A stretch of 64,000 nt of DNA from a virus (IMGVR_UViG_3300037153_000606), one strand, 5' to 3'; positions 2,890 to 50,549 are shown, counted from the stretch's first letter. Translations and numbers: made by a program. The notes: generated by a model from the sequence alone, not told the origin.

Positions 2890-4731
2890 ATGGGCAACGA
2901 CGTCGACCGGATGCTGGCCGAGTACGAGAACGCCTCGGACCGGGAGCCGATGCATGGCAAGACCGGCGAGATCCGGCGCAATCCGAGCACCGATCAGAAG
3001 AAGGCTCGACGCCGTCAGGAGGAGACCCGGTTGCTGCGCACCGCCGCGACCGCGTCCACCCTGGACGAGCAGCGCCAGGCCATGGTCGAGCTGGAGACGC
3101 TCCGCACCGAGGCAATGCGCGAGGACGACGAGGAGCGCGCACTCGACATCACCGCCGCCCGGATCGACGACACGTTGATCCCCGGGCACGTGCACGAGCT
3201 GCACACCGCCGCCACCGACTGGCTGCTGGAGATCCCCGAGCACACCGCATCACGCCAGGATGCCGAGCACGCCCTGATCGCCGAGGCGGTGCTGTGGTAC
3301 GGCCGGGTGGATTCCGTCATCAAGGCCGATGGCGAGGAGTTCGCCGAGCAGGCCCGCAACAAGGCCCGGCACGTGGCCAGCCAGTACGGCGAGCACGCCG
3401 AGTCCGCCGCCCAGGCGTTCCTGACCGAGGCGTCCCGGCTGTTGGAGCAGGAGGTCCGCACCGGCACGTTGAGTCACACCGCCGCGCTGATGGACGTGCA
3501 CGACCTGGGGGATCCCGAAGGCGGCATGGTGTCCCATGACGTGCCCGAGACGCCCGCCGAGACGGCCGAGCCGCAGGCCAGGCCGGTGCACGCCCCGGAG
3601 CTGGAATCGCCCAAGGTGGACCGCCCAGCGTGGGCGCACCACCTGCAGGGCGACACCTCCGGGCTGGAGGAGATGAGCCACAACTTCGCCCAGCACGTGC
3701 TGGGCAAGGCCTCTGCGCTCTCCCGCGAGCCGGAGCGCTTCCCCGAGCACGTGGGCGTCGGTGGGCCGCCCATCTCCGCCCAGGACGCTTCGGCGTCCCC
3801 GGGTGTCTACCCGCCTGAGCCGGATACCAGCTCCAACCGCGCCCCGGCACTGCAGGAGATGCAGAACTACGAAGGCTTCGAAGGCACCTCCGTGGTGCCC
3901 GACCCGTCCGGCCAGTCCGAGCAGATGAATGGCGACCAGCGCGCCAGCGAGGACTACGCCCGTCCCCAGGCCGGATTCCCGGTCAGCGGCAGCCACACCC
4001 AGAAGGAGTCATCCGTGACTGATCACGCCCAGTGCCCGACCTGCGGTGGTCTGGGCAGAGTCGCCGTGCGCAAGCAGGCCTATTCCGGCCTGCCCCAGGT
4101 CGACCAGATCGTGAACGCCGACGAGTCGCCGGGCGCGACCCCGTTGCCCACCGACGTGGCATGGCCGATCGTCTGGGACCCGAACGAGATCAACCGGGCC
4201 ATCCAGGAGACCGAGGGCCAGATCGCCCGCCGTCCGGAGGGGTTGCCCGGCCCGCCCGGGGCACCCGGGCACAAGGGTGCGTCCCGCCACGAGGCGCAGG
4301 GTCGAGACAACTCCGGCTGGATCGGCGACATGGGCGCGAAGGGGCCGGACTATCCGGGCTACTCCTACCCGGCCGGTTACGACGGCTCGAACAACCTGGG
4401 CCAGCCGGACCCGGTGTACGGCTACGGCGGGGACGAGCCGCAAGGCCCGAAGCTGCCCTACGGCAACGCCGAGGCGGACGATTTCACCAACAACCCGGGC
4501 GAGCCCTACAACCCGAGCGTGCCGCACAACAACGACCAGGGCTTCCAGGAGGTTGCGCCGGGCTTCGCCACCGCGCCGCCCGGTGGGTCCACCAGTGCCC
4601 CCGGTTCGGTCGGTTCGTCCCGGCAGTCCGCATTGGCCGACCCGTTCATCGCCGCCGCGCAGGAGGAGATCGCCCGTCAGCAGCAGTTGATCCAGACCCG
4701 TTCTTCGATGCTGGCCAGGCAAGGTTCGTGA
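2890..4731 (+). CDS. Head-region (putative virion) protein
   Basis: About 613 aa, follows the late motif, CxxC motif and P/G/Y-rich segments; start could be 2875. Confidence 0.65.
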   Translation: MGNDVDRMLAEYENASDREPMHGKTGEIRRNPSTDQKKARRRQEETRLLRTAATASTLDEQRQAMVELETLRTEAMREDDEERALDITAARIDDTLIPGHVHELHTAATDWLLEIPEHTASRQDAEHALIAEAVLWYGRVDSVIKADGEEFAEQARNKARHVASQYGEHAESAAQAFLTEASRLLEQEVRTGTLSHTAALMDVHDLGDPEGGMVSHDVPETPAETAEPQARPVHAPELESPKVDRPAWAHHLQGDTSGLEEMSHNFAQHVLGKASALSREPERFPEHVGVGGPPISAQDASASPGVYPPEPDTSSNRAPALQEMQNYEGFEGTSVVPDPSGQSEQMNGDQRASEDYARPQAGFPVSGSHTQKESSVTDHAQCPTCGGLGRVAVRKQAYSGLPQVDQIVNADESPGATPLPTDVAWPIVWDPNEINRAIQETEGQIARRPEGLPGPPGAPGHKGASRHEAQGRDNSGWIGDMGAKGPDYPGYSYPAGYDGSNNLGQPDPVYGYGGDEPQGPKLPYGNAEADDFTNNPGEPYNPSVPHNNDQGFQEVAPGFATAPPGGSTSAPGSVGSSRQSALADPFIAAAQEEIARQQQLIQTRSSMLARQGS

Positions 4732-8000: not shown

Positions 8001-8434
8001 CCGCCCCGGTCGCGCCCATTGCACCCGGACCCCCGGGCACGGCCACTCCGGCCGTGCCGAGCCCGGGTGGGCCGGGAGGTGCCGGAGGTACCGCCGTACC
8101 GGGCGGAGATTCCAACGTGCCGCAGGCATCCAGTGCAGACCTATCGCGCATTTCATCCGATTTGAAGGCATATGCCCTGCAGACGTTGACTGCACCCACC
8201 CCGGAGAACCCCACCGGGCGGGACCCCGACGAGTACCGGTCCAACACCTGGGAGGGGCTGGTCCGGCAACGGCCCATGCAGTCCGCCGAGGAGCGCAACG
8301 TGAACACCCCGACGCTGGCCCCGGAACCGATCCGGACCAGGAACGTGAACACGCCGACACCGGGCCTCGGGGACTGGGACGGGTCCACCCGCGACGAGGA
8401 CGACCTGGAAGGCGAAGAGGAGCGCGAGGACTGA
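5051..8434 (+). CDS. Large multidomain head-region protein (Zn ribbons, DnaJ-type CxxCxGxG, DGSFPI module)
   Basis: 1127 aa, RBS AGGAG, modules separated by SRHTA-like motifs. Confidence 0.75.
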   Translation: MPNEIAATALWTDAVSDHDADAHRRTVVAAKVALSGTWPFLAAASSEEEFEHRLALVTAQVEEHTPAEALDDVVASLRQDFATLASARAAEAAAAAEVTAEEGIGLAERYAHVRHRGGDEDGYFQVDLIGPQTVQTLARAASRDEAFTAARAHRVPIYENGRHAELPPVESGQEFFHAASGRWVNAREFAERAQHLGAAEDDDDEGEAGLSHQQRVAQEYAQFHRSPDWELKNIHKALNMLPFLNGPQENARLDAIKQIRSERRRRQGVFTPDPTDAMRYNRYPTIPSPDFGGSPAGPGDHPTGPDGFPPDVAQGEQRSEEAYARQTTPGPWVVPPDAAWRDSMLPNAATGLPQGQYPAPGNPAVNASRYMASGTSDDFHGGRERDAKCSDCGENYSSSLSKCPNCGKKTSSRHTAQEGVAPSTHAPNPNYFWQGAQIAGPPTFPPDPGPEPKTNNNVDDLYGAVPPEQSSGSQMGQVDGAGYSRQGTLSREAVREAAWWWGITRTGGMYYHGREFDQAARDKAAKSGHALSDGSFPIYNAKDVQNAKNRIGTSDHDRATIVKHINHWAKEYGEPPVGEEKDASRHTAASLEGFLHGLQSGQEATVGEHSVRYDAQQALDDYGRPARGFTVGTYSVTAPGGGIKYFSHSPYKPDSWAGQAKRAAAEDAARHIWDTQRQRQSSVRHTAPGGGEHAPYRIKKVDGGYAVFNDKGERKNDEAKSYPEARRFQKALYRNVPGARQSAEEDEAHKAASRGRLPFAQADRSTEQLREEEYREGREHAERGLPPETSIPGIDDVYDAGYADRRHDLGRMAAHQATCPECEGTGKDWNDYDPCPRCQGSGQASANTLSPPELDKDHRPVSVAGWRCDVCGHEVNGQTDEEGIPTQRGDSVRHTGSRRMANTSGQIVGHCDHCHAPVRWHDGDDSDAGHLEHLHNASNRCSDGSRNVAKTSGLTHLPQFFDPFCVPPSRTASGPLAMQPAAPSAPVAPIAPGPPGTATPAVPSPGGPGGAGGTAVPGGDSNVPQASSADLSRISSDLKAYALQTLTAPTPENPTGRDPDEYRSNTWEGLVRQRPMQSAEERNVNTPTLAPEPIRTRNVNTPTPGLGDWDGSTRDEDDLEGEEERED

Positions 8435-10481: not shown

Positions 10482-13400
10482 GTGCTGCTCACCGAGGCCG
10501 AGCTGGCCCGGAAGGCCGCGCACCAGAGCGACAACGAGCTGAACTACGCGCGGTTCGGGTGTTACCACACCGCGTTGGGCCGGGTGTTGAAGGGCCACCG
10601 CCGTGCCCTGCTCGAAGACGCCGCGATGGACCGCCCGCCGCCGGGCATCGAACCGGTCCGCCACGTCATCGAGGGTGCCCGCGCGTTCAACGCCCACCAC
10701 GGCCTGGGCGACCCGCACGGCGACGTCGACTACCACCGGGTGCGCACCCACCGGGGGTTGTTGACCGACCTGGCCAAGGCCTACGACCGGATGCCCGAGG
10801 ACGACCCCGAGGCGCACCGGCACTTCGCCGCCATGGGCCGCGAGGTGGACCGCCAGTACGAGCACATGACCAACCGGATGGGCATCCACGTCCAGGTCAC
10901 CGACCACGACCCGTACCGCGACGTGCACGAACTGCGCGAGGATGTGGCCAACAACCACCGCATCAAGGTCCTTGGCACGCACGCGACCGGCGGGCACCCG
11001 TTCTTCTCCAACGAACAGAACGACCGGTTCCGTGCGGTGCACGACCTGTTCGGGCACCTGGGCACTGGGCGCGACTTCGACCGGCACGGCGAGGAGGCCG
11101 CCTTCCAGGCGCACGCCCGGATGTTCACCCCGCAGGCTCGTGGTGCGCTCGCCTCCGAGACCCGCGCGCAGAACGCCCACCTGATCACCACCGGGCGTTT
11201 CGGTGCCCAGAAGATCGCGTTGATGCCGAAGCGGTTGTGGCACCCCGGCCTGGCGCACATGGCGGCTTCGGACCCGTCATGGGAGAATGATTTTCATGCG
11301 ATCCAGCGAGCTGCCTCCGGATCATCGGGACTACATGCATCCCGAGGTCGAGGCCGAGTTGGAACGGCGGATGAACGACGGGTACCGCTGGGACGATCCG
11401 AGTCGAGTGGCACATACCGAACGCGAGTTGCGCGAGCAGATGGACCGCGATCTGGCAGTGGCCGAAGAACACGAACGGCGACGCAGGACAGCCAGTTCGA
11501 CTTCCGCGTCCGTAGGCATCCGGGACTCGAATCCGACATCCTGAACCTGCCGTCTGAACTTCGGCCCAAGCTGCATAACCGCATTATCGAGATGGCGCGC
11601 GGCCATGAGCCGCCTGATACGCACGACCTTGACGAAGAACCATTGTCACGAGGCAGATGGCGTGCCGGGACGATCATGGACGAAACCGATCCCCAGCACG
11701 AGCAAGATCGTTGGAGGTGGATCCACCGCTACCACGGCGGCGACCTGCAGATCTTCGCCGCCGGGGCACACCATAAGCCGGGAGAGCCGGTCGATCCCGA
11801 TGCTCCTCCCGACATTTATCGACATGCCCGGGAGCGATGGGAAGACCCCGATCGGCGGTATTTCGCCGCCATCGAGTACGTCGCCATGGGCCACGCCGGA
11901 CCGGACTACACCGGGTTGAGTTTTACCGACACACAGCACCACCAGTACCGCGAGATCTCTTACCGGCGCTTACAGGCATACCATCCCGACCACGATACGC
12001 CGGTCGGCGAGATCTCCTTCTCGGTGTCCCCGCCGCACGCCAAGCGCCCGTTACCGTTGATCCAGATCGACAACGTCGGGGTGCCCGCCGAACACCGCCG
12101 CCGGGGCGTGGCCACCGCCTTGATGAACGAGCTGGAGCGGCAGTATCCGGACCACGTCATCGACCACGGGGAACGCACCAAGCCGGGGGCGGACTGGGCG
12201 AAGTCGAAGTACGGGCCGGGCCAGACCCGGGGTTGGTCCAAGGCCCGGGAACGGTTCACCACCACCGACCTCACCCTCAACGGTCGGCCCTACACCGCCA
12301 TGGGCCAAGCAGGACCGGACTACGAGGGCCTGACCTTCAAAGACATGTCCGGGTTCGAGTACGGCGCGCACCCGGACCTGCACCACCATCGATTGTTGTT
12401 CGCCAGACACCCGGACGAACCCGGGTACCTGGGCCACGTCCAGTACGAACAACACCCGCACGAGATCGAGATCCACAACCTGACCGTGCACCCGGAGTAC
12501 CAACGCCGGGGGGTGGCCAGTGCGTTGATGGGCGAACTGGAACGGCGCAATCCCGGCGTCGTGATCAACCACGGGATGCGGTCCTCGTCCGGCACGCAGT
12601 GGGCCAAGGACTTCTACGGCCACGAGGGCCCACCATTGAACAACGGCCAGCAAGGGTGGACGGTCGCCCCGCGCACCCGCGACCGGGAGAGGGTCGCCAA
12701 GCACGTCGCCGCCGAGGGATTACCGCCCGGTTACACCATGGCGGTGCGCGAGGACCCGAGCACCGAGCGGTGGGGCCTGCCCGCGCTGCACGTCAAGGTT
12801 CGCCACGGCGGTCGAGAAGTCGGCGCGTTGAGCGTGCACCAACGCGACATCGACGACGAGCGGGTCGGGCACCCGAACATCTACGTGGACCCCGAGCACC
12901 AACGCCAGGGTCTGGCCAGTGCCATGTACGCCGAGGTGCACCGGCGGTGGCCGAAGGTACCGGTGGTGCATTCCGAACACGCCAGCGATGCCGCCAAGGC
13001 GTTGAACCAGCGCCTGCTGGAGCACTTGCCGCAGTTGCACCGGCAGGCCGCCGCCGAGCGCTACTACCACGCGACGCCTTATGACTTGGATCGAGAGACG
13101 CATGTCCGGTCACCGATGGAGACAGGTCGGGAGCCGCATTGGGGTGGAATGGGCGACCAAGAGGACGCTCAGGTCTTCGGCACCCACTCCATCGAGAACG
13201 CGCACGAGTGGGGCGGCGAGATTGCCGACTCGTCCCACTACCGCATTTACGAGGTGCAGTCCGAAGGAAATGTGGAAGACCACTCTCACACCTGGGCCGC
13301 ACCCCGGGCTCGGATCCTGCGTCGGGTGCACCCTCCGGTTGCCAAGCAGGCCGCCGCCAGGCACACCATGTCATTAGCCGAACTGCGCACGTTGCCTACC

Positions 13401-29516: not shown

Positions 29517-29522
29517 TAGAAT
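29517..29522 (+). promoter_or_regulatory. Putative -10 hexamer TAGAAT for the orphan guide array
   Basis: Ends 12 nt upstream of the first GGC; no convincing -35. Confidence 0.45.
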
Positions 29523-29534
29523 GATGCCGCCCAT

Positions 29535-30087
29535 GGCACGGCTTGGCCGGGCATGCCTTGGCGCGGTTTGGTTCGGCAGTCAGGGCGCGGCCTGGCCCGG
29601 CGCGGCTGGTCAAGGCTTGGCCTGGCATGGCAGGCGCGGCAACGGCTAGGCAGGGCTTGGCCGGGTTTGGTCAGGCTTGGCATGGCAGGCAAGGCGGGGC
29701 CCGGTTAGGTACGGCGAGTTAGGGCGGGGCAGGGCACGGCAGTCGCGGCAAGGCTAGTTAGGGTTCGGCCGGGCTTGGCCGGGTTTGTCAGGGCAGTCGT
29801 GGTTCGGCCCGGTTCGGCTAGTCGGGGCCTGGTTGGGCACGGCAGGCATGGTACGGCTTGGCGAGGCATGGCAACGCAAGGCGAGGCGCGGCAGTCGGGG
29901 TTTGGCTTGTCGCGGCCAGGCACGGTCCGTCCCGGCTCGGTAGTCGTGGTGCGGCTGGGTCCGGCAGGGCTAGGTGCGGCGCGGTGCGGCAGCCGTGGTT
30001 GGGCATGGTTCGGCAAGTCCAGGCTAGGCAGGTCGCGGCAGGCAAGGGCAGGGTCTGGCGGGTTAGGGCGCGGTTGGGCGTGGCAGG
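29535..30087 (+). ncRNA. Orphan GGY-NN pentamer guide array (11 units of about 8-10 pentamers)
   Basis: 5-nt period with GGCA(G) phase shifts every 49-55 nt; flanked by TAGAAT and a hairpin; same grammar as the array next to the RAMP-like gene. Confidence 0.8.
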
Positions 30088-30118
30088 GCCCCGGTTCTTC
30101 ACTAAGTGGAACCGGGGC
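30088..30118 (+). terminator. Hairpin closing the orphan array
   Basis: 10-bp stem GCCCCGGTTC / GAACCGGGGC. Confidence 0.6.
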
Positions 30119-41462: not shown

Positions 41463-44400
41463 GTGATGTTCCGCAAGTTTGCTTCTGCTGAAGTGTTGGC
41501 CGTTGCAAAAGGTGAGTCATTGAAAAAGGATGCTCATCGAGCGGTCTTTTCATTTGTACCTCGACCTGGGTTTCTCTATGTAAGGTCTAGAAGTATATCT
41601 AGTCGCTGCAACGACAACTACGATTTTTTCGGCGCGGACGAGATCGCCAAGTCCTACCGGACCTTCATCGGCAAGCCGGTGTTCGTCAACCACAACAACT
41701 CCGACCACCGCCGGGCCCGGGGGATGGTCATCGACGCGGTCCTGCACCGGGACCGCAACGCCGACGGGTCCCCGGATTTCTGGGTCGAAGCGCTCATGGA
41801 GGTCGACGCCGAGACCTACCCGAAACTCGCCAAGTCGATCCTGTCCGGCGAGATCGACCGCACCTCGATGGGATGCGACGTCGAGTTGTCCAAGTGTTCC
41901 TACTGCGGCAACGAGGCGACCTCGCCGTTGGAGTACTGCCAGCACATTCCCGGCAAGAAGGGCAAGCGGATCTACAAGATGCTTCCCGACGGACGCCGGG
42001 AAGGACAACTCGTCTTCGAGATCTGTTCTGGTTTGTCGTTCTTCGAGAACTCACTGCTGGTGGAGCCTCCGGCAGATCCGACGGCTTATTTCCTTGGGCA
42101 GCCGGTATTGGGACCTGGTTTAGAGCATCTCAGGCAGAAAGCAGCGAATCTGCAGGCCGTTCTGGAGGAACAGCCTGCCGCGCCACGCCATGACATGCCT
42201 AGCCGAGCCTCGACAAACCAAGCCCGGCCGTTGCAGCGTACGGCAGCGGCTGGTGACGACTGGCATGTCGGGATGGACCCTGAGCGCCGCCGCAAGGCCG
42301 AGGAGGCCGCAGGCAAGCTCTGGGAGGGGTTCCACCAGATCATGGATCCGGGGTCGACGCCCGCCTCACGCGTCTCCGACCGCAACATGCGGGTGATGAA
42401 CAACCTGCAGAACCTGGGATATCAGCCGCATCACATCAAGTTCGAGGACGACGAGGACGAAGGGCATCCGTACGCCCACATCCAGGGACCCAAGGGGTGG
42501 TACGGCGTCGACTACGGCGGCCCGCACATGGAGATCCGGCACCAGGCCACCGGCAACGAGTCCCACGACTTGATCAACTTGCAGCACTACGACAAGGAGA
42601 CCCGCGAGCAACACCGGATGCCCGGGTACGGACCGCACGAGGCCGAGGCGGACCTGCACCACTGGGTACACGGCGACCCGGAGGAGACTGGCGGGAGCGC
42701 CGAGTACCTGGAGCACAACGACCCGCGCATCAAGCGGTGGATCGGCCGCCACCAGGCCGCGTTGCAGGTCGAGGCGGTCACCCAGGAGCATGCCGAGGAC
42801 TACCTCAACGAGCACCCGATCAGCCCCACACACATCCTGAGCCGGGTCGAGCAGGCCGCCTCGGACCCGGCCACCCTGCACTCCGGGATGAAGTGGTACG
42901 ACGACGCACACGGGATGGCCAAGACCATGGCCAGCCACCACGGCGTGCCGTTGCAGCACGCGGCAGGTGCACTGGGGGTCTACTCCTCCAGCTCGGCCCC
43001 GGCCCCGAACTTCCACATGGCCTCGATCGCCCTGCATGCCGGAAAGGGGATCTGGGCCCGTGAGTCCGGCGGTTCCGCCGAACACGGTTACAAGGGATCC
43101 CCGATGGCGTCCGAGGCCGATGCCAAGAAGGTGGACCGGATCTTCTCCGGAGAGCACTACAACGACGTCATCGGTTCGTCCAAGACCAAGCACTACGCCC
43201 GGCTGATCCACGACCCGTCCAACGATCACGACGTGGTCATCGACCGGCACGCGGTGGCGGCGGCGATCGGTCATTACGGCAACTCCGGCGAGCCGTACAA
43301 CAACGTGGCCGGGCCGATGGAGAACGTCAACGCCAAGGGGGCGGGCAAGCTCTACGACCGGTTCTCCGACGCCTACCGGCAGGCCACCCACCACCTGAAC
43401 ACGTCGCCCGAGTACAGCCCTCTGCGCAAGCACATGGTCCGGTCCGGACTGCTCGGCGAGGGCGAGAAGATCAAGCCGCACCAGGTGCAGGCGCTGGCCT
43501 GGATCGCGCAGAAGGACATCAGCGACCAGCATGCCCGCAACGACATGACCAACGCCAACCAGCGCGCCATCGACGACTGGCAGAACCACTACACCAGCCG
43601 GTACGGGGTGGACGCGCACCACCCGGTGTCCGGCAAGGGGTTCTACGGCCAGGAGCCGACCCCGGCGAAAGCGGCGAGCATGCAGCGCCTCTCCTACGGG
43701 GAAACGAAAGCCCCTCAGGACGTCGACACGCTGCGCGACGAGCGGTGCGCGATCTGCGGTAACGACACGGCCTACGACGGGCGGGAGTGCCTGGTCTGCG
43801 GGTACATCGCGCCGCCCAAGGCGTTGGGTGACCCGGACGTCGACAAGGCCAAGCATCTGGACGAGTTGAAGCAGTCGGTCGACGACGCGCTCTCCGAGGT
43901 CGACCCGTCCCGGCCGGGTGCGGACTTCGACCCCGGCGACCTGGACGAGATCCAGGCCGAGATCGGTGAGGCGGGCACCCCGCCGATGGTGTGCCCGAAC
44001 TGCGACTCGGTCTTCGACCCGGCCGAGGAAGAGATCAATGCCGGTGATACCTGCCCGGACTGCGGTCAGGCCGAGGTGGCGGAGGCCGAGCCGGAGGAGG
44101 GCGAGGGAGACGCCCAGGATGTGGCCGAGGACGAGGCCACCGAGGGGCTGCCCGGCGAACAGGCCGAGGACCAGGACGTGCCCAGCGGGGACGAGGACGA
44201 AGACGCCGACGAGGACGAGGAAGACGAGGACGGGGAACCAGACGACGAAGACGAGGAGGACGAGGAAGACAAGCGCAGACGTCGTCCTGTTGCCAGCCGG
44301 TCCGCGACCTCGAAGTACCGACCACCATCGAAGGGGTACGACATGCAGAAGGCACTGGCGGCACTGGCCGAGCTGCAGGCCCTGGTCGAGCACCAGCAGC

Positions 44401-45263
44401 ACGAGAACCTGAAGCTGCAGCGGCGGCTCGCCGCCAAGGACAGCCAGATCCAGCGGTTGACCTACGGTCTGCAGGCGATCGCCCAGCATCTCGGCCCCGA
44501 CGTGGACACCCTGGTGCGTTCGGCCATGCTGCGCAAGCGGGCCGACGAGCAGAACCCGGCCCAGCCGGTGCCCGAGCCCGCGCCGGAACCGCCGACCGAG
44601 TCCACCGTGCAGGCCGAGACGCCGGAGGCGTTCGCCGACGTCACCGCGCCGGGCATGGTGCCGGGGTCCACCCAGGACGTGGCCGCCGACGCCGTCTCCA
44701 CCGCGTACACGCCCGGTCAAGACGTGGGCGCGCCGCCACTGCGCCAGTTGGTCGACGTGACCCGGCCCATCGACGGCACCCAGGGACCGCGCCCGTTAAG
44801 CGAGACCAAGACCAACGTGGACGTGCGGGTGGGCAACCCGATGAACCCGCAGACCGCGTTCCCGCTCGGCGGTGACTTCGCCCAGGCGCAGCGCACCGGT
44901 TCGGTCAACGGCGGCAGCGGGGACCTGAAGACGATGGCCTCGATCCGGCTGGCCAGGCTGCGCATCGCGGCCAACATCGAGGACGGCGAGGACCTGGCCA
45001 TCGCGCAGCGCATCGCCGCCGAGCTGGACGTCCCGGCGATCAACGCCGAGATCGCCACGCTGTCCAACGTGATCAAGGCGAGTGCGGCGCGCCGCCAGCA
45101 GCAGCCACCGCCGCGCGGAGTGCCGCCGCGCCCGGCTCCGGGGGTGGGCCGCACCGTTCCGCCGATGACCCGTTCGGCCGGGTTGCGCACCGCATCGCGG
45201 CCGGACGCCGAGGACGCCGACCTGGCGCTGGTTTTCCTCTCCGAGCAAGCCCTGTCCAGCTGA
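41463..45263 (+). CDS. Capsid maturation protease/scaffold polyprotein
   Basis: YRTFIGKPVFVNH, TSMGCDV...CSYC...C.H, FFENSLLVEPPADPTA; acidic and coiled-coil C-terminus; upstream of the capsid genes. Confidence 0.75.
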   Translation: MMFRKFASAEVLAVAKGESLKKDAHRAVFSFVPRPGFLYVRSRSISSRCNDNYDFFGADEIAKSYRTFIGKPVFVNHNNSDHRRARGMVIDAVLHRDRNADGSPDFWVEALMEVDAETYPKLAKSILSGEIDRTSMGCDVELSKCSYCGNEATSPLEYCQHIPGKKGKRIYKMLPDGRREGQLVFEICSGLSFFENSLLVEPPADPTAYFLGQPVLGPGLEHLRQKAANLQAVLEEQPAAPRHDMPSRASTNQARPLQRTAAAGDDWHVGMDPERRRKAEEAAGKLWEGFHQIMDPGSTPASRVSDRNMRVMNNLQNLGYQPHHIKFEDDEDEGHPYAHIQGPKGWYGVDYGGPHMEIRHQATGNESHDLINLQHYDKETREQHRMPGYGPHEAEADLHHWVHGDPEETGGSAEYLEHNDPRIKRWIGRHQAALQVEAVTQEHAEDYLNEHPISPTHILSRVEQAASDPATLHSGMKWYDDAHGMAKTMASHHGVPLQHAAGALGVYSSSSAPAPNFHMASIALHAGKGIWARESGGSAEHGYKGSPMASEADAKKVDRIFSGEHYNDVIGSSKTKHYARLIHDPSNDHDVVIDRHAVAAAIGHYGNSGEPYNNVAGPMENVNAKGAGKLYDRFSDAYRQATHHLNTSPEYSPLRKHMVRSGLLGEGEKIKPHQVQALAWIAQKDISDQHARNDMTNANQRAIDDWQNHYTSRYGVDAHHPVSGKGFYGQEPTPAKAASMQRLSYGETKAPQDVDTLRDERCAICGNDTAYDGRECLVCGYIAPPKALGDPDVDKAKHLDELKQSVDDALSEVDPSRPGADFDPGDLDEIQAEIGEAGTPPMVCPNCDSVFDPAEEEINAGDTCPDCGQAEVAEAEPEEGEGDAQDVAEDEATEGLPGEQAEDQDVPSGDEDEDADEDEEDEDGEPDDEDEEDEEDKRRRRPVASRSATSKYRPPSKGYDMQKALAALAELQALVEHQQHENLKLQRRLAAKDSQIQRLTYGLQAIAQHLGPDVDTLVRSAMLRKRADEQNPAQPVPEPAPEPPTESTVQAETPEAFADVTAPGMVPGSTQDVAADAVSTAYTPGQDVGAPPLRQLVDVTRPIDGTQGPRPLSETKTNVDVRVGNPMNPQTAFPLGGDFAQAQRTGSVNGGSGDLKTMASIRLARLRIAANIEDGEDLAIAQRIAAELDVPAINAEIATLSNVIKASAARRQQQPPPRGVPPRPAPGVGRTVPPMTRSAGLRTASRPDAEDADLALVFLSEQALSS
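42171..42229 (-). repeat. Single GGY-NN unit embedded antisense in the protease gene
   Basis: 10 pentamers plus GGCAGGC junction; TACGCT upstream on the minus strand (42240-42235). Confidence 0.65.
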
Positions 45264-46907: not shown

Positions 46908-47738
46908 ATGCCTCGGCCGCCGTCTCCAACGACTTCGAAGACGTGTCAACGTGACGGTTGCGATAACCGATTCGAAGTCACCCAAGCCAAAGCTCAGAGG
47001 GATCGTCGATTTTGTTCGAAAGATTGCTCGAACAAAGCCACCGCGCTAATCCGTGGCGCTTCGTATCGAGCCAGTCATGGGTATAAGCCGCCAGTTTGTC
47101 CATGTGGTCGTTCTATCCAACCGAGACCGGGCCAGCGGTACGTCTATTCGAAGAAATATTGCGACATGGAGTGTCGTGCTCGATTTAGCCCGAGGCGACA
47201 ACCCAATCCTGAAAAGTGGGGTTCATACACGTGTCGCGTGTGTGGCACTGAATTCACCCGCCGGAAGAACTCTCGTAATGCCAAGATCTATTGCAGCCTT
47301 GCGTGTGCCAACAAGGAGACCAAGAAGAAGCATCACATCGTGTTGCGCGATGACGATGTTGTGTTCGACAGTGCCTGGGAGGCGTTCTTTTACGGCGCGT
47401 GCAAGATCGCGAAGATCCCGATCGAACGGTTCGACCGAGATCATGGTGTTGCCTACGACCCAGAATACCTGGATCGGTGGTACGCGCCAGACTTCTGGTT
47501 GCCCGACGTCCAGGCATGGGTCGGTCGCACCGGCGTTGCGATCGAAATCAAAGGTGTTGAAGACGACCGCGACGAAACCCGGTGGACCGCCTTCCGGTCG
47601 ACGGGAGTCGACCTGGTGGTGATGGACCGGTACCGGATGGAGAACCTGTCTGCACACTCGTTGTCCGACATCCTGCGAGTCGCCACGATGAGGGACAATC
47701 CCGCCTTGCCATGCCAAGCCGCGACACGCCTAGCCTAA
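46908..47738 (+). CDS. Free-standing endonuclease with Zn-ribbon repeats and a PD-(D/E)XK-like domain
   Basis: Three CxxC...(F/Y)CxxxC repeats; DSAWE...YAPDFWLPD...IEIKG; lower GC. Confidence 0.7.
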   Translation: MPRPPSPTTSKTCQRDGCDNRFEVTQAKAQRDRRFCSKDCSNKATALIRGASYRASHGYKPPVCPCGRSIQPRPGQRYVYSKKYCDMECRARFSPRRQPNPEKWGSYTCRVCGTEFTRRKNSRNAKIYCSLACANKETKKKHHIVLRDDDVVFDSAWEAFFYGACKIAKIPIERFDRDHGVAYDPEYLDRWYAPDFWLPDVQAWVGRTGVAIEIKGVEDDRDETRWTAFRSTGVDLVVMDRYRMENLSAHSLSDILRVATMRDNPALPCQAATRLA

Positions 47739-49273
47739 CCTTGCCACGCCGAACCAGGACTGCCGCGCCCTGCCAAGGGTTGCCCCGCCCAACCCAACCG
47801 GGCCTCGCCTGGCACGCCGAGACGAACCCGGCCAAGTACCGCCGTGCCATGCCGCACCTTGGCAGCCTCACCGAGCCATGCCGAGCCATGCCCATCCACG
47901 CCGTGCCCTGACCACCATGCCGTGCCTGCCGAGCCACGCCAAGCCTTGACCCGCCCTGACGGGCCGAGCCTTGCCCTGACTGCCGAACCACGCCAAGCCA
48001 CACCAAGACCCGACCTGCCAAGCCGAGCCGTGCCGAGCCATGCCTGCCCCGCCGCACCACGCCGCACCATGCCGCTGCCCTACCGTGCCGCACCCTGCCC
48101 GCCTTGCCCAGCCAAGACGTGCCACTCCAGGCCAAACCCTGCCCGCCTTGCCTCACCTCGCCGTGGCCCGCCCAACCGCACCGAGCCCCGCCAAGCCTGC
48201 GTCGCCCCGCCGTGACCCGTCACGCCGGGCCCAACCAAACCACGCCTGCCCGACCGAGCCCTGCGTTGCCCTGCCTGGACCAACCGCGCCTCGCCTGCCA
48301 TGCCCCACCTGGCCAGACCATGCCCAGCCGTGCCAGCCTGCCAAACCGAGCCCTACCGAGCCGTACCCAGACGAGCCAAGCCACACCGTGCCCGCCCAAC
48401 CGGGCCGCACCGGGACTCGCCGAGCCCTACCTTGCCTGCCTTGCCGAGCCGAGCCTCGCCAAGCATTGCCATGCCCAGCCGTGCCTGCCGAACCGAGCCC
48501 TACCGGGCCGAGCGGTGCCCTGCCTGGCCTAGCCGCGCCGCGACTGCCCTGCCTTGCCTCACCCAGCCTTGCCGAGCCGCACCAAGCCTTGCCGCGCCTG
48601 CCGTACCTCGCCCAGCCGAGCCCGGACGGACCTAGCCCCACCGCACGGTGCCCTGCCGAGCCATGACTGCCCTGCCCTGCCGCACCGAACCGAGACGTGC
48701 CGGACCACCCGGGCCAAGCCACGACTGCCGTGCCACACCCTGCCGACCATGCCCAACCCAGCCATGCCGAGGCTGCCCCGCCGTACCGGACCCGGCCGCA
48801 CCAAACCAAGCCATGCCTGCCGCGACCTGCGATGCCCTGCGGTACCAGGACATGCCGTGCCTGCCGAGCCGGGACCCGCCCCGCCATGACTAGCCATGAC
48901 CGGACTTGCCCCACCGAGCCTGCCCAGCCACGCCTTGCCCAGACTTGCCAGGCCTTGCCGTGCGCTGCCAGCCGAGCCAAGCCTTGGCTGCCTCGCCACG
49001 CCGAGCCCTGCCGAGCCCACCTAGCCTTGCCCTGCCACGGCTGCCCTGACATGACCCGCCGTGCGATGCCGAACCGGGCCGGACCATGCCTGCCTACCAG
49101 GCCACGCCCCGACTCGTCCCGCCTTGCCTTGCCTGCCGGGCCGAGCCTTGACTAGCCATGCCTAGCCACGCCATGCCGAGGCTGCCCAGCCATACTGCGC
49201 CGTGCCGAGACTTGCCCCGCGACGACCCGACATGCCTGCCCGACCTCGCCACGCCCACCTAGCCGTGACTGCC
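47701..49273 (-). ncRNA. Main GGY-NN pentamer guide array (about 30 units, about 300 pentamers)
   Basis: 5-nt periodicity with GGCAG(G/T/C)C unit junctions; directly downstream of and co-oriented with the RAMP-like gene pair. Confidence 0.85.
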
Positions 49274-49822: not shown

Positions 49823-50452
49823 TTAGTTGATGACCGTGATCTCGCGGGCCTGGTCGATCTCGAACGTCCCGTACTCGCCGTTCTTCTCCGGACGCCACTC
49901 ACCGACACCGACGGTGAGACCGGCGGCGGAGATGATCGAGAGCACCGAGTCGCGGGTGATCGCGGACTTGACGTACTGCACGGTCAGCTCGGAGGTCCAG
50001 TCCGGGAACTCGGCGCGGTAGCGCAGGTCGGTGCCACTGATGCCAACCGTCACCATGTCCTCGCGCATCTTCGGCTCGCCGACGATCGGGAAGAGCGCCT
50101 GGTTGCAGTGTTCGCTCATCACGCCACGGAAGAACAGGAACTGGCGCAGCTCGGTCATCCGGACCGACTTGCCGTACAGCCGGGCGGCGGACACCGTCGC
50201 GGCCTTGAACGCGACGGACGGGAAGCCGTAGCCGTCGGCGGTGCGGTACAGCGAGGACTCGAACTCGGCCTCGGGGTCGCGGGGTTCCTTGATGGTCTTG
50301 CGGCCCTGCTGGGTGTCCAGCATCTGGCGCTTGGCCTTCTCCGACCAGTTGTGCACGATCAGCGGCATGGTGCCGACGACCGGCACGAGCAACGTCTCGA
50401 CGTCGATCTTGGTGATGTCCAGTTGGGCTGGAGCGGCGGCTGCTGCGGGCAT
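49823..50452 (-). CDS. Stand-alone RAMP/Cas7-like protein (209 aa)
   Basis: GTMPLIVH, FPSVAFKAATVSAA (compare RAMP IPGSSLKG), C-terminal Gly-rich loop GVGEWRPEKNGEYGTF; RBS AGGAGG. Confidence 0.75.
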   Translation of the reverse strand: MPAAAAAPAQLDITKIDVETLLVPVVGTMPLIVHNWSEKAKRQMLDTQQGRKTIKEPRDPEAEFESSLYRTADGYGFPSVAFKAATVSAARLYGKSVRMTELRQFLFFRGVMSEHCNQALFPIVGEPKMREDMVTVGISGTDLRYRAEFPDWTSELTVQYVKSAITRDSVLSIISAAGLTVGVGEWRPEKNGEYGTFEIDQAREITVIN

Positions 50453-50549
50453 GTAAGCCTCCTGGGGCTCGATACGTAATGGGTAGAACGTTGACGAGGG
50501 GGAAGTTAGCACGGTGAAGAGGACTCCCGCAAAGCCAGTACGTTTTCTT

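Follow-up and report, generated by a model that had tools for sequence, protein, structure and literature searches.

The virus IMGVR_UViG_3300037153_000606 probably carries a solitary guide RNA gene of the VIPR system (a vrRNA gene), which is overprinted in antisense orientation on the linker of a protease-scaffold gene, is maintained by selection and works like the guides of the vrRNA arrays of this phage. The stretch analyzed here comprises 64,000 nucleotides (the window), and the repeat tract of the unit consists of 11 consecutive in-phase pentamers of the type G[GT][CT]NN (9 GGY, 2 GTC) on the minus strand (42229-42175). Its variable dinucleotides read, in 5' to 3' direction, CG TT TT GA TC TA AT AT GT GC AG. 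The final pentamer is GGCAG and is followed by GCTG (42174-42171, minus), so that GGCAG/GCTG can be read as GGCAG plus GGCTG with one common G; this is the one-base-overlap junction GGCAG/GC that is typical of staggered arrays. A 3' hairpin with an 11-bp stem and a 5-nt loop (42178-42152, minus), which was detected by folding, begins within the last pentamer, and the tail is a simple hairpin rather than a pseudoknot of the SUSP1 type. Upstream of the tract, 5 nt (gcaac) separate the first pentamer from TACGCT (42240-42235, minus), a -10-like hexamer of the form TAnnnT, which is also the antisense of the codons Q-R-T. On the plus strand, the run encodes QPAAPRHDMPSRASTNQARPL within the open reading frame 41463-45263.

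In the VIPR system, the minimal RAMP protein Vipr binds guide RNAs made of GGY/NN repeats, the NN pairs read double-stranded DNA with one base skipped between the pairs (usually the wobble base), and the targets lie mostly in competing phages (bioRxiv 10.64898/2026.04.26.720920). According to the same preprint, the units of staggered arrays overlap by one base (text and legend to fig. S18), a vrRNA tract has 9-16 pentamers (at least 4 for calling), and a target is accepted when at least 80% of the NN letters match and no self-target reaches 80%. Applied to the reverse complement, the 1-nt-skip rule decodes the window guide to L-A-T-(I/M)-(I/M)-Y-(D/E)-S-(N/K)-(N/K)-R, where L is obtained only if the terminal AG is counted.

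The window phage has about 40 array guides, and we compared the unit with its arrays and with that of a related contig (G001). Here, 53 of 61 array units (87%) end in GGCAG, 46 of the 61 (75%) are followed by GC with a phase shift of minus one, and GTC accounts for 9-13% of the array pentamers. In length, GTC share, GGCAG plus GC end and hairpin, the 42-kb run fits an array unit, and strong hairpins are also present at the end of the window plus-strand array and of the G001 array. The array is 5.5 kb distant from the unit, and vipr 7.6 kb. An earlier note, made from the sequence alone, had described an embedded guide unit antisense within the protease/scaffold gene, and its array-unit anatomy together with the retention of the same site in relatives (see below) supports this description. 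Ten pentamers plus a GGCAGGC junction, as counted there, are the same thing as 11 pentamers ending in GGCAG/GC; the TACGCT hexamer 5 nt upstream was found where the note had placed it, and its decoding, AT(I/M)(I/M)Y(D/E)S(N/K)(N/K)R, is what the published rule yields.

Conservation of the unit at the linker site

The pentamers cover codons 238-256 of the gene, which belong to the variable linker after the protease domain. At the same linker position, the related phage L071 (G001, an 85.7-kb contig in IMG/VR, whose protein is 74% identical over the first ~235 residues) carries 12 antisense pentamers, 11 of which are intact and one degenerate. This contig also has its own vipr (71% identical) and an array of about 3.7 kb. 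In L040, a short contig that ends at this site (57% protein identity), the last four pentamers and an identical GGCAG/GCTG are found at the same codons, and GGC-to-GGT changes preserve the Y. At the peptide level, the linker of P0002 (71-73% identical) back-translates to 12-13 antisense pentamers, and the guide read from this peptide would differ from that of the window at several NN. In a set of 121 homologues (137,724 residues), only P0001, P0002 and P0005 (which is L071) have at least 14 successive codons whose peptide is compatible with antisense pentamers; in all others such runs reach at most 13 codons. P0002, P0003 and P0004 were judged from their peptides; P0004 (74% identical) is without the linker unit, and the ~60 relatives whose DNA was examined have quite different linkers without pentamers. 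No near-identical phage records were found.

Comparing the protease domains of the window and L071, we found that third codon positions are identical at 0.50-0.56, which is about saturation, and first and second positions at 0.78-0.79. Within the unit, 29 of the 33 GGY positions are identical compared with 11 of 22 NN positions (Fisher p = 0.004), a test that is partly circular since both sequences were picked as pentamer runs. The NN positions are as diverged as synonymous sites. At least two other contigs, in which synonymous sites are saturated, have the unit at the orthologous codons, which indicates that it is old and has been kept vertically. It can further be seen that the hairpin behind the unit is built from three different sequences, which encode different peptides, in the window, L071 and L040, and this argues for selection on the RNA.

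Predicted target of the orthologous guide in L071

The L071 guide decodes to D-V-W-V-E-A-L-M-E-V-D, a conserved protease motif, and motifs of the WVEALMEVD type are the most conserved of the protease domain in this gene family. In L083, a 102-kb IMG/VR phage, the guide matches 22 of 24 letters and its first 11 pentamers are matched perfectly. The protease motif of the window (D-F-W-V-E-A-L-M-E-V-D, 41775-41809, plus strand) is matched at 21 of 24 NN letters. When the 11-pentamer core was used, about 35 other relatives were matched at 17 or more of 22 letters. In each of these cases the reading frame is respected and the skipped base falls on the wobble position. In contrast to these sequences, the corresponding motif of L071's own gene, D-T-W-C-E-C-L-M-E-I-D, matches its own guide at 14 of 24 letters, and this protease allele is unique among the 121 homologues.

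For the same core, shuffled-order guides (n = 1000) yielded at most 23 sites at 17 or more letters versus 33 observed, and the best score of 19/22 was reached by 1.2% of them. The excess appeared solely in the 1-nt-skip register: skips of 0 and 2 bases gave none, and a 3-base skip recovers the guide's own locus. An exact 18-letter core of the guide had 3 matches in 2.9 million viral contigs, 2 of which are the protease motif in homologues. Judged from its sequence, the L071 guide is a live guide by the criteria of the VIPR preprint (match of at least 80%, no self-target), and it is predicted to be aimed at rivals' copies of the very gene that houses it, the gene of the window included.

The recoded, presumably immune allele of L071 lies about 420 bp from the guide in the same gene, and thus the two are inherited together. 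By analogy, this linkage would resemble a poison-immunity pair. The protease motif of the window, DFWVEALMEVD, is itself a predicted target, which would put the window phage on the receiving end in a co-infection. Across P0001-P0121, the motif (xWxExLMExDx) varies at position 3 (V/A/C/T/S) and position 5 (V/G/A/T/C); Cys is found at position 3 in P0002, P0003 and P0005, which belong to the close relatives with an actual or possible linker guide. The variation at these two positions could be a footprint of guide-driven diversification.

Candidate target of the window guide

Half of the letters of the window guide differ from those of the L071 guide, and only about half of them agree with the protease motif of the window itself. 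No self-target within 3 mismatches of 22 letters was found in the 64-kb window. When 1.66 Mb were scanned (0.83 Mb of related phage DNA, both strands), the best match was 18 of 22 letters (82%) at L036 4334-4365, and the homologous site scored 17 of 22 in both L016 and L018. The three matches are in frame on L-G-T-V-I-T-E-S-N-N-R. This sequence, which forms the invariant core in an 80-aa protein family (29 members, P0122-P0150), is the best candidate target of the window guide, a weak one predicted from the match. As controls, the array guides were run on the same local DNA, and 0 of 53 scored above their own shuffles. A missing match is therefore uninformative for the array guides, from which the two protease-embedded guides stand apart.

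In L036, the gene of the 80-aa protein occupies positions 4181-4420 (plus strand). The core of the family reads TDELGTVITES(D/N)NRQDV, and the protein has no Pfam domain. Its genes lie in the head-gene region of more distant relatives, just past a large polyprotein open reading frame and a few kb upstream of the protease gene. A homologue is present neither in the window nor in G001.

Evidence against a working guide and alternative explanations

Several observations weigh against a working guide at 42 kb. Neither a promoter of the sigma-70 type nor a U-tailed terminator was called by the consensus scan. In L071 the place of TACGCT is taken by TATATT; 5 nt further on, two out-of-phase pentamers (GGCAA GGTCG) adjoin the in-phase tract. 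Both hexamers are antisense to Q-R/Y-T, codons within an LQxTA motif, which is also present in homologues without the unit; since the conserved LQRTA codons explain TACGCT, this hexamer is weak evidence for a promoter. The 5' motifs of the other solitary units, TTATGATGA and CCGTTTNAANCGG, were not found at the 42-kb unit, and the same applies to TAGAATGATG, which precedes the plus-strand array. The hairpin has a z-score of -1.35 in its 91-nt context, the weakest of the set, compared with -2.4, -3.3 and -3.9 for three other solitary units. The best match of the window guide is just at the published 80% threshold, and 18 of 22 letters were reached by 1.5% of 1000 shuffled-order guides (p about 0.015). 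An exact 20-letter (20-nt) target was found neither in IMG/VR nor in 185,579 species genomes (0 matches each). Sub-patterns of 18 letters had 2 low-GC matches without extension, which look chance-like, and 14 further matches that are taxonomically scattered, include no Actinobacteria and are about the number expected by chance. Finally, the DNA of orthologous units comes from two contigs only, L071 and L040, the second of which is cut at the site, and the comparison of GGY with NN positions has the circularity mentioned above.

Some of these points would fit a dead relic, an array unit that had once entered the linker as a copy, is neither transcribed nor loaded any more and is tolerated by a floppy Pro/Ala-rich peptide. 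The negative promoter scan, the lack of a convincing target, the missing 5' cassette motifs and the fact that P0004 does without the stretch are all compatible with this scenario, which we consider unlikely for three reasons. The phase is intact at saturated divergence (11/11 pentamers in the window, 11/12 in L071 and the visible end in L040), and the argument still stands that a neutral relic would have lost it in both lineages at such a distance. A hairpin has been retained after each unit by different sequences. Moreover, the L071 orthologue has a natural target that is perfect over 22 letters.

Selection might instead act on the sense strand or on the protein, for instance on a periodic Ala-x-Pro-x-x linker or on an mRNA element, and the antisense pentamers would then be incidental. 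The linker peptide is indeed Pro/Ala-rich in every carrier, and the hairpin is able to form on both strands. However, most peptide positions differ between the carriers, the period is 5 nucleotides and not one of codons, the run terminates in the array-specific GGCAG/GC, and the ~60 relatives manage with their quite different, pentamer-free linkers. When the peptide was fixed and synonymous codons were redrawn from the phage's own usage, 11 or more pentamers survived in 5.5e-4 of 300,000 trials. When these 22 codons were permuted instead (300,000 trials), the maximum was 8. These two null models indicate that the pattern resides at the nucleotide level and is no by-product of a Pro/Ala-rich peptide, and we regard selection on the sense strand or the protein as very improbable.

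A chance run in GC-rich coding DNA can be excluded: GCC and CCN are frequent codons at 67% G+C, but the longest runs were 6 pentamers in dinucleotide-preserving shuffles (n = 300), 7 in 670 kb of related phage DNA from 68 metagenomic loci and 8 in the codon permutations, compared with 11 observed, and the run recurs at the orthologous site in relatives. Chance frequency in shuffled sequence, which the earlier note had named as one observation that would speak against its reading, was not seen in any of these comparisons. Once the arrays were removed, the window held just two runs of at least 5 pentamers, the 42-kb run (11) and a run at 32057-32116 (12).

Proposed mode of action and comparison with known systems

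If the 42-kb unit is a working guide gene, Vipr (49823-50455) would bind along the GGY triplets of its antisense transcript, which would be trimmed at the GGCAG/GC junction and the hairpin. The complex would then bind double-stranded DNA that matches the NN pairs with one skipped base, which means that codons would be recognized irrespective of the wobble position, and the bound gene of a competing phage would be silenced. In the DNA of the guide the NN pairs are spaced by three bases and in the target by one; the guide locus is thus never its own target, and for this reason it may sit in an essential gene.

Virus-borne mini-CRISPR arrays and solitary repeat units are likewise isolated viral guide units that are used against related viruses. 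They are intergenic and need repeats and the Cas machinery of the host, and if a contiguous spacer lay within a gene, it would match that very locus. The gapped VIPR code, in contrast, does not match the locus in which the guide resides. A looser analogy is offered by toxin-antidote or poison-immunity pairs and by homing-endonuclease genes with immune alleles: in L071, the guide and the immune allele are co-inherited in a comparable manner, whereas the effector would be an RNA-guided silencer and neither a protein toxin nor a nuclease.

With the published staggered arrays (bioRxiv 10.64898/2026.04.26.720920), the system of the window shares a Cas7-like Vipr, GGY/NN guides of 9-13 units, the one-base overlap, the wobble-aligned 1-nt-skip code and, by prediction, targets in competing phages. 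It differs in that the 42-kb unit stands alone and antisense inside a protein-coding gene, whereas the vrRNAs of the preprint are intergenic and flank vipr. Solo or orphan vrRNAs have been described in satellites and VIPR-null phages of Enterobacteriaceae, which have no cognate Vipr and borrow one in trans (bioRxiv 10.64898/2026.10.15.759431). These are similar as single guides off an array, which are wobble-aligned, are directed at conserved and often catalytic motifs of rivals and match self less well than non-self. The window phage, in contrast, has its own Vipr and its array guides, its solitary guide overlaps an essential gene, and the guide of its cousin L071 targets the very gene family that houses it. 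As this genome also encodes vipr, on the same strand and at a distance of 7.6 kb, the unit is a solitary dispersed guide of a VIPR-positive phage and not an orphan vrRNA. The VIPR class and solo guides are already published. A term search of the two preprints (bioRxiv 10.64898/2026.04.26.720920 and 10.64898/2026.10.15.759431), which did not cover the structural VIPR preprint, found no mention of a guide in a coding gene or of linkage between a guide and an immune allele of the gene that it targets.

VIPR is a recent finding (2026), and the guides reported for it are intergenic arrays or solo loci. The present unit suggests that a guide gene can be overprinted on essential coding sequence and retained there for a long time, and that the gapped code makes such overprinting safe, as the guide's own DNA is no target. 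Guide finders that are limited to intergenic DNA would miss units of this kind, and gene annotation would take them for odd Pro/Ala linkers. The guide of L071 and its recoded own allele provide a concrete example of what would be allele-specific warfare between close relatives, and this case suggests a reason why two positions of the protease motif are so variable in the family.

Other solitary units and dispersal of guide cassettes

The second solitary unit of the window (32057-32116, plus strand) was identified by the pentamer scan and by folding. It comprises 12 pentamers within the gene of a 1383-aa polyprotein, is preceded by TTATGATGA (32037-32045) and is followed by a 15-bp hairpin (32129-32161). 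It lies on the sense strand and the 42-kb run is antisense, and thus the dispersal of units in both orientations, which the earlier note had pointed out, holds for this phage. The segment that contains the 32-kb unit is missing from L071. Conversely, L071 carries a sense unit with hairpin, which is a clean 33-codon insertion relative to the homologous polyprotein of the window.

The sense units of the window (32037-32161, plus) and L071 (7830-7945, plus) have a common 5' flank, TTATGATGA followed by GGCGA, and a strong hairpin after each. Their positions in the homologous polyprotein differ, each is an insertion relative to the other phage, and both are preceded by an encoded [S/G]-Y-D-D. The window and G001 each have a single copy of TTATGATGA, 11-13 nt before the sense-strand unit. 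The window lacks a near-palindrome, CCGTTTNAANCGG, which G001 has only at 8227-8239 and 11210-11222, in each case directly before one of the two solitary units of that contig; this element could serve as an operator or belong to a promoter. In P0002, residues 793-824 form a 32-residue insertion that is absent from six close homologues and, going by the protein alone, back-translates to about 14 antisense pentamers; this is probably a second embedded guide in its protease-scaffold gene.

From these insertions it is evident, as far as such sequence comparisons can tell, that guide cassettes of 32-33 codons are gained or lost in large genes of the virion module (the portal-side polyprotein and the protease/scaffold gene). 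The proposal of the earlier note that there is a mechanism for generating or moving individual units is supported in part: single-guide cassettes turn over elsewhere, whereas the 42-kb unit has been inherited in place and has not moved recently.

A tentative reading, which we consider possible yet rather doubtful, would join these observations. Mobile single-guide cassettes of about 96-99 nt, each with a -10-like box, 10-12 pentamers and a hairpin, would insert in frame into floppy linkers of virion polyproteins. A protease-embedded guide and a recoded allele a few hundred bases away would constitute a tightly linked poison-and-immunity pair, which would turn an essential head gene into a drive-like selfish module during co-infection of related phages. 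The window lineage would have kept the sensitive allele and re-lettered its guide to another target.

Host gene and VIPR locus of the window phage

According to domain searches, the host gene (41463-45263, plus strand) encodes a protein of 1266 aa. Its first ~210 residues constitute a head-maturation protease (domain at about aa 25-210; phrog_18299, E 6.7e-26), and the linker that holds the unit is disordered. DUF7178 and a long, acidic, scaffold-like C-terminal part follow the linker. The protein has hundreds of homologues, many of them on ~150-kb contigs of Streptomyces and Kitasatospora assemblies.

The vipr gene (49823-50455, minus strand) encodes a RAMP (Cas7-like) protein of 210 aa with thousands of relatives. 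Its structural model (pLDDT 94.7) aligned in Foldseek with chains of Csm3, Cmr4, Cmr6 and type VII Cas7 (E down to 4e-6, probability 1.00), and a Pfam search of vipr, its partner and the upstream gene gave no significant match. The G001 homologue, which is 71% identical, adjoins the array of that contig.

The pentamer scan revealed two staggered vrRNA arrays in the window, the main one at 47701-49177 (minus strand) and a second at 29535-30091 (plus strand), at the end of which folding detected a hairpin. Both are long and non-coding, and their units have 8-13 pentamers. Binding RNA for a TRAP-like ring protein, G-quadruplex tracts and a Gly-rich or Pro/Ala-rich repeat protein were also considered and dropped, because the arrays are non-coding and the VIPR preprint fits. 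The minus-strand array and the G001 array begin directly after the terminator-like hairpin of the upstream gene. Just upstream of the plus-strand array, TAGAATGATG (29517-29526, plus) is a good -10-like box, 8 nt before the first pentamer.

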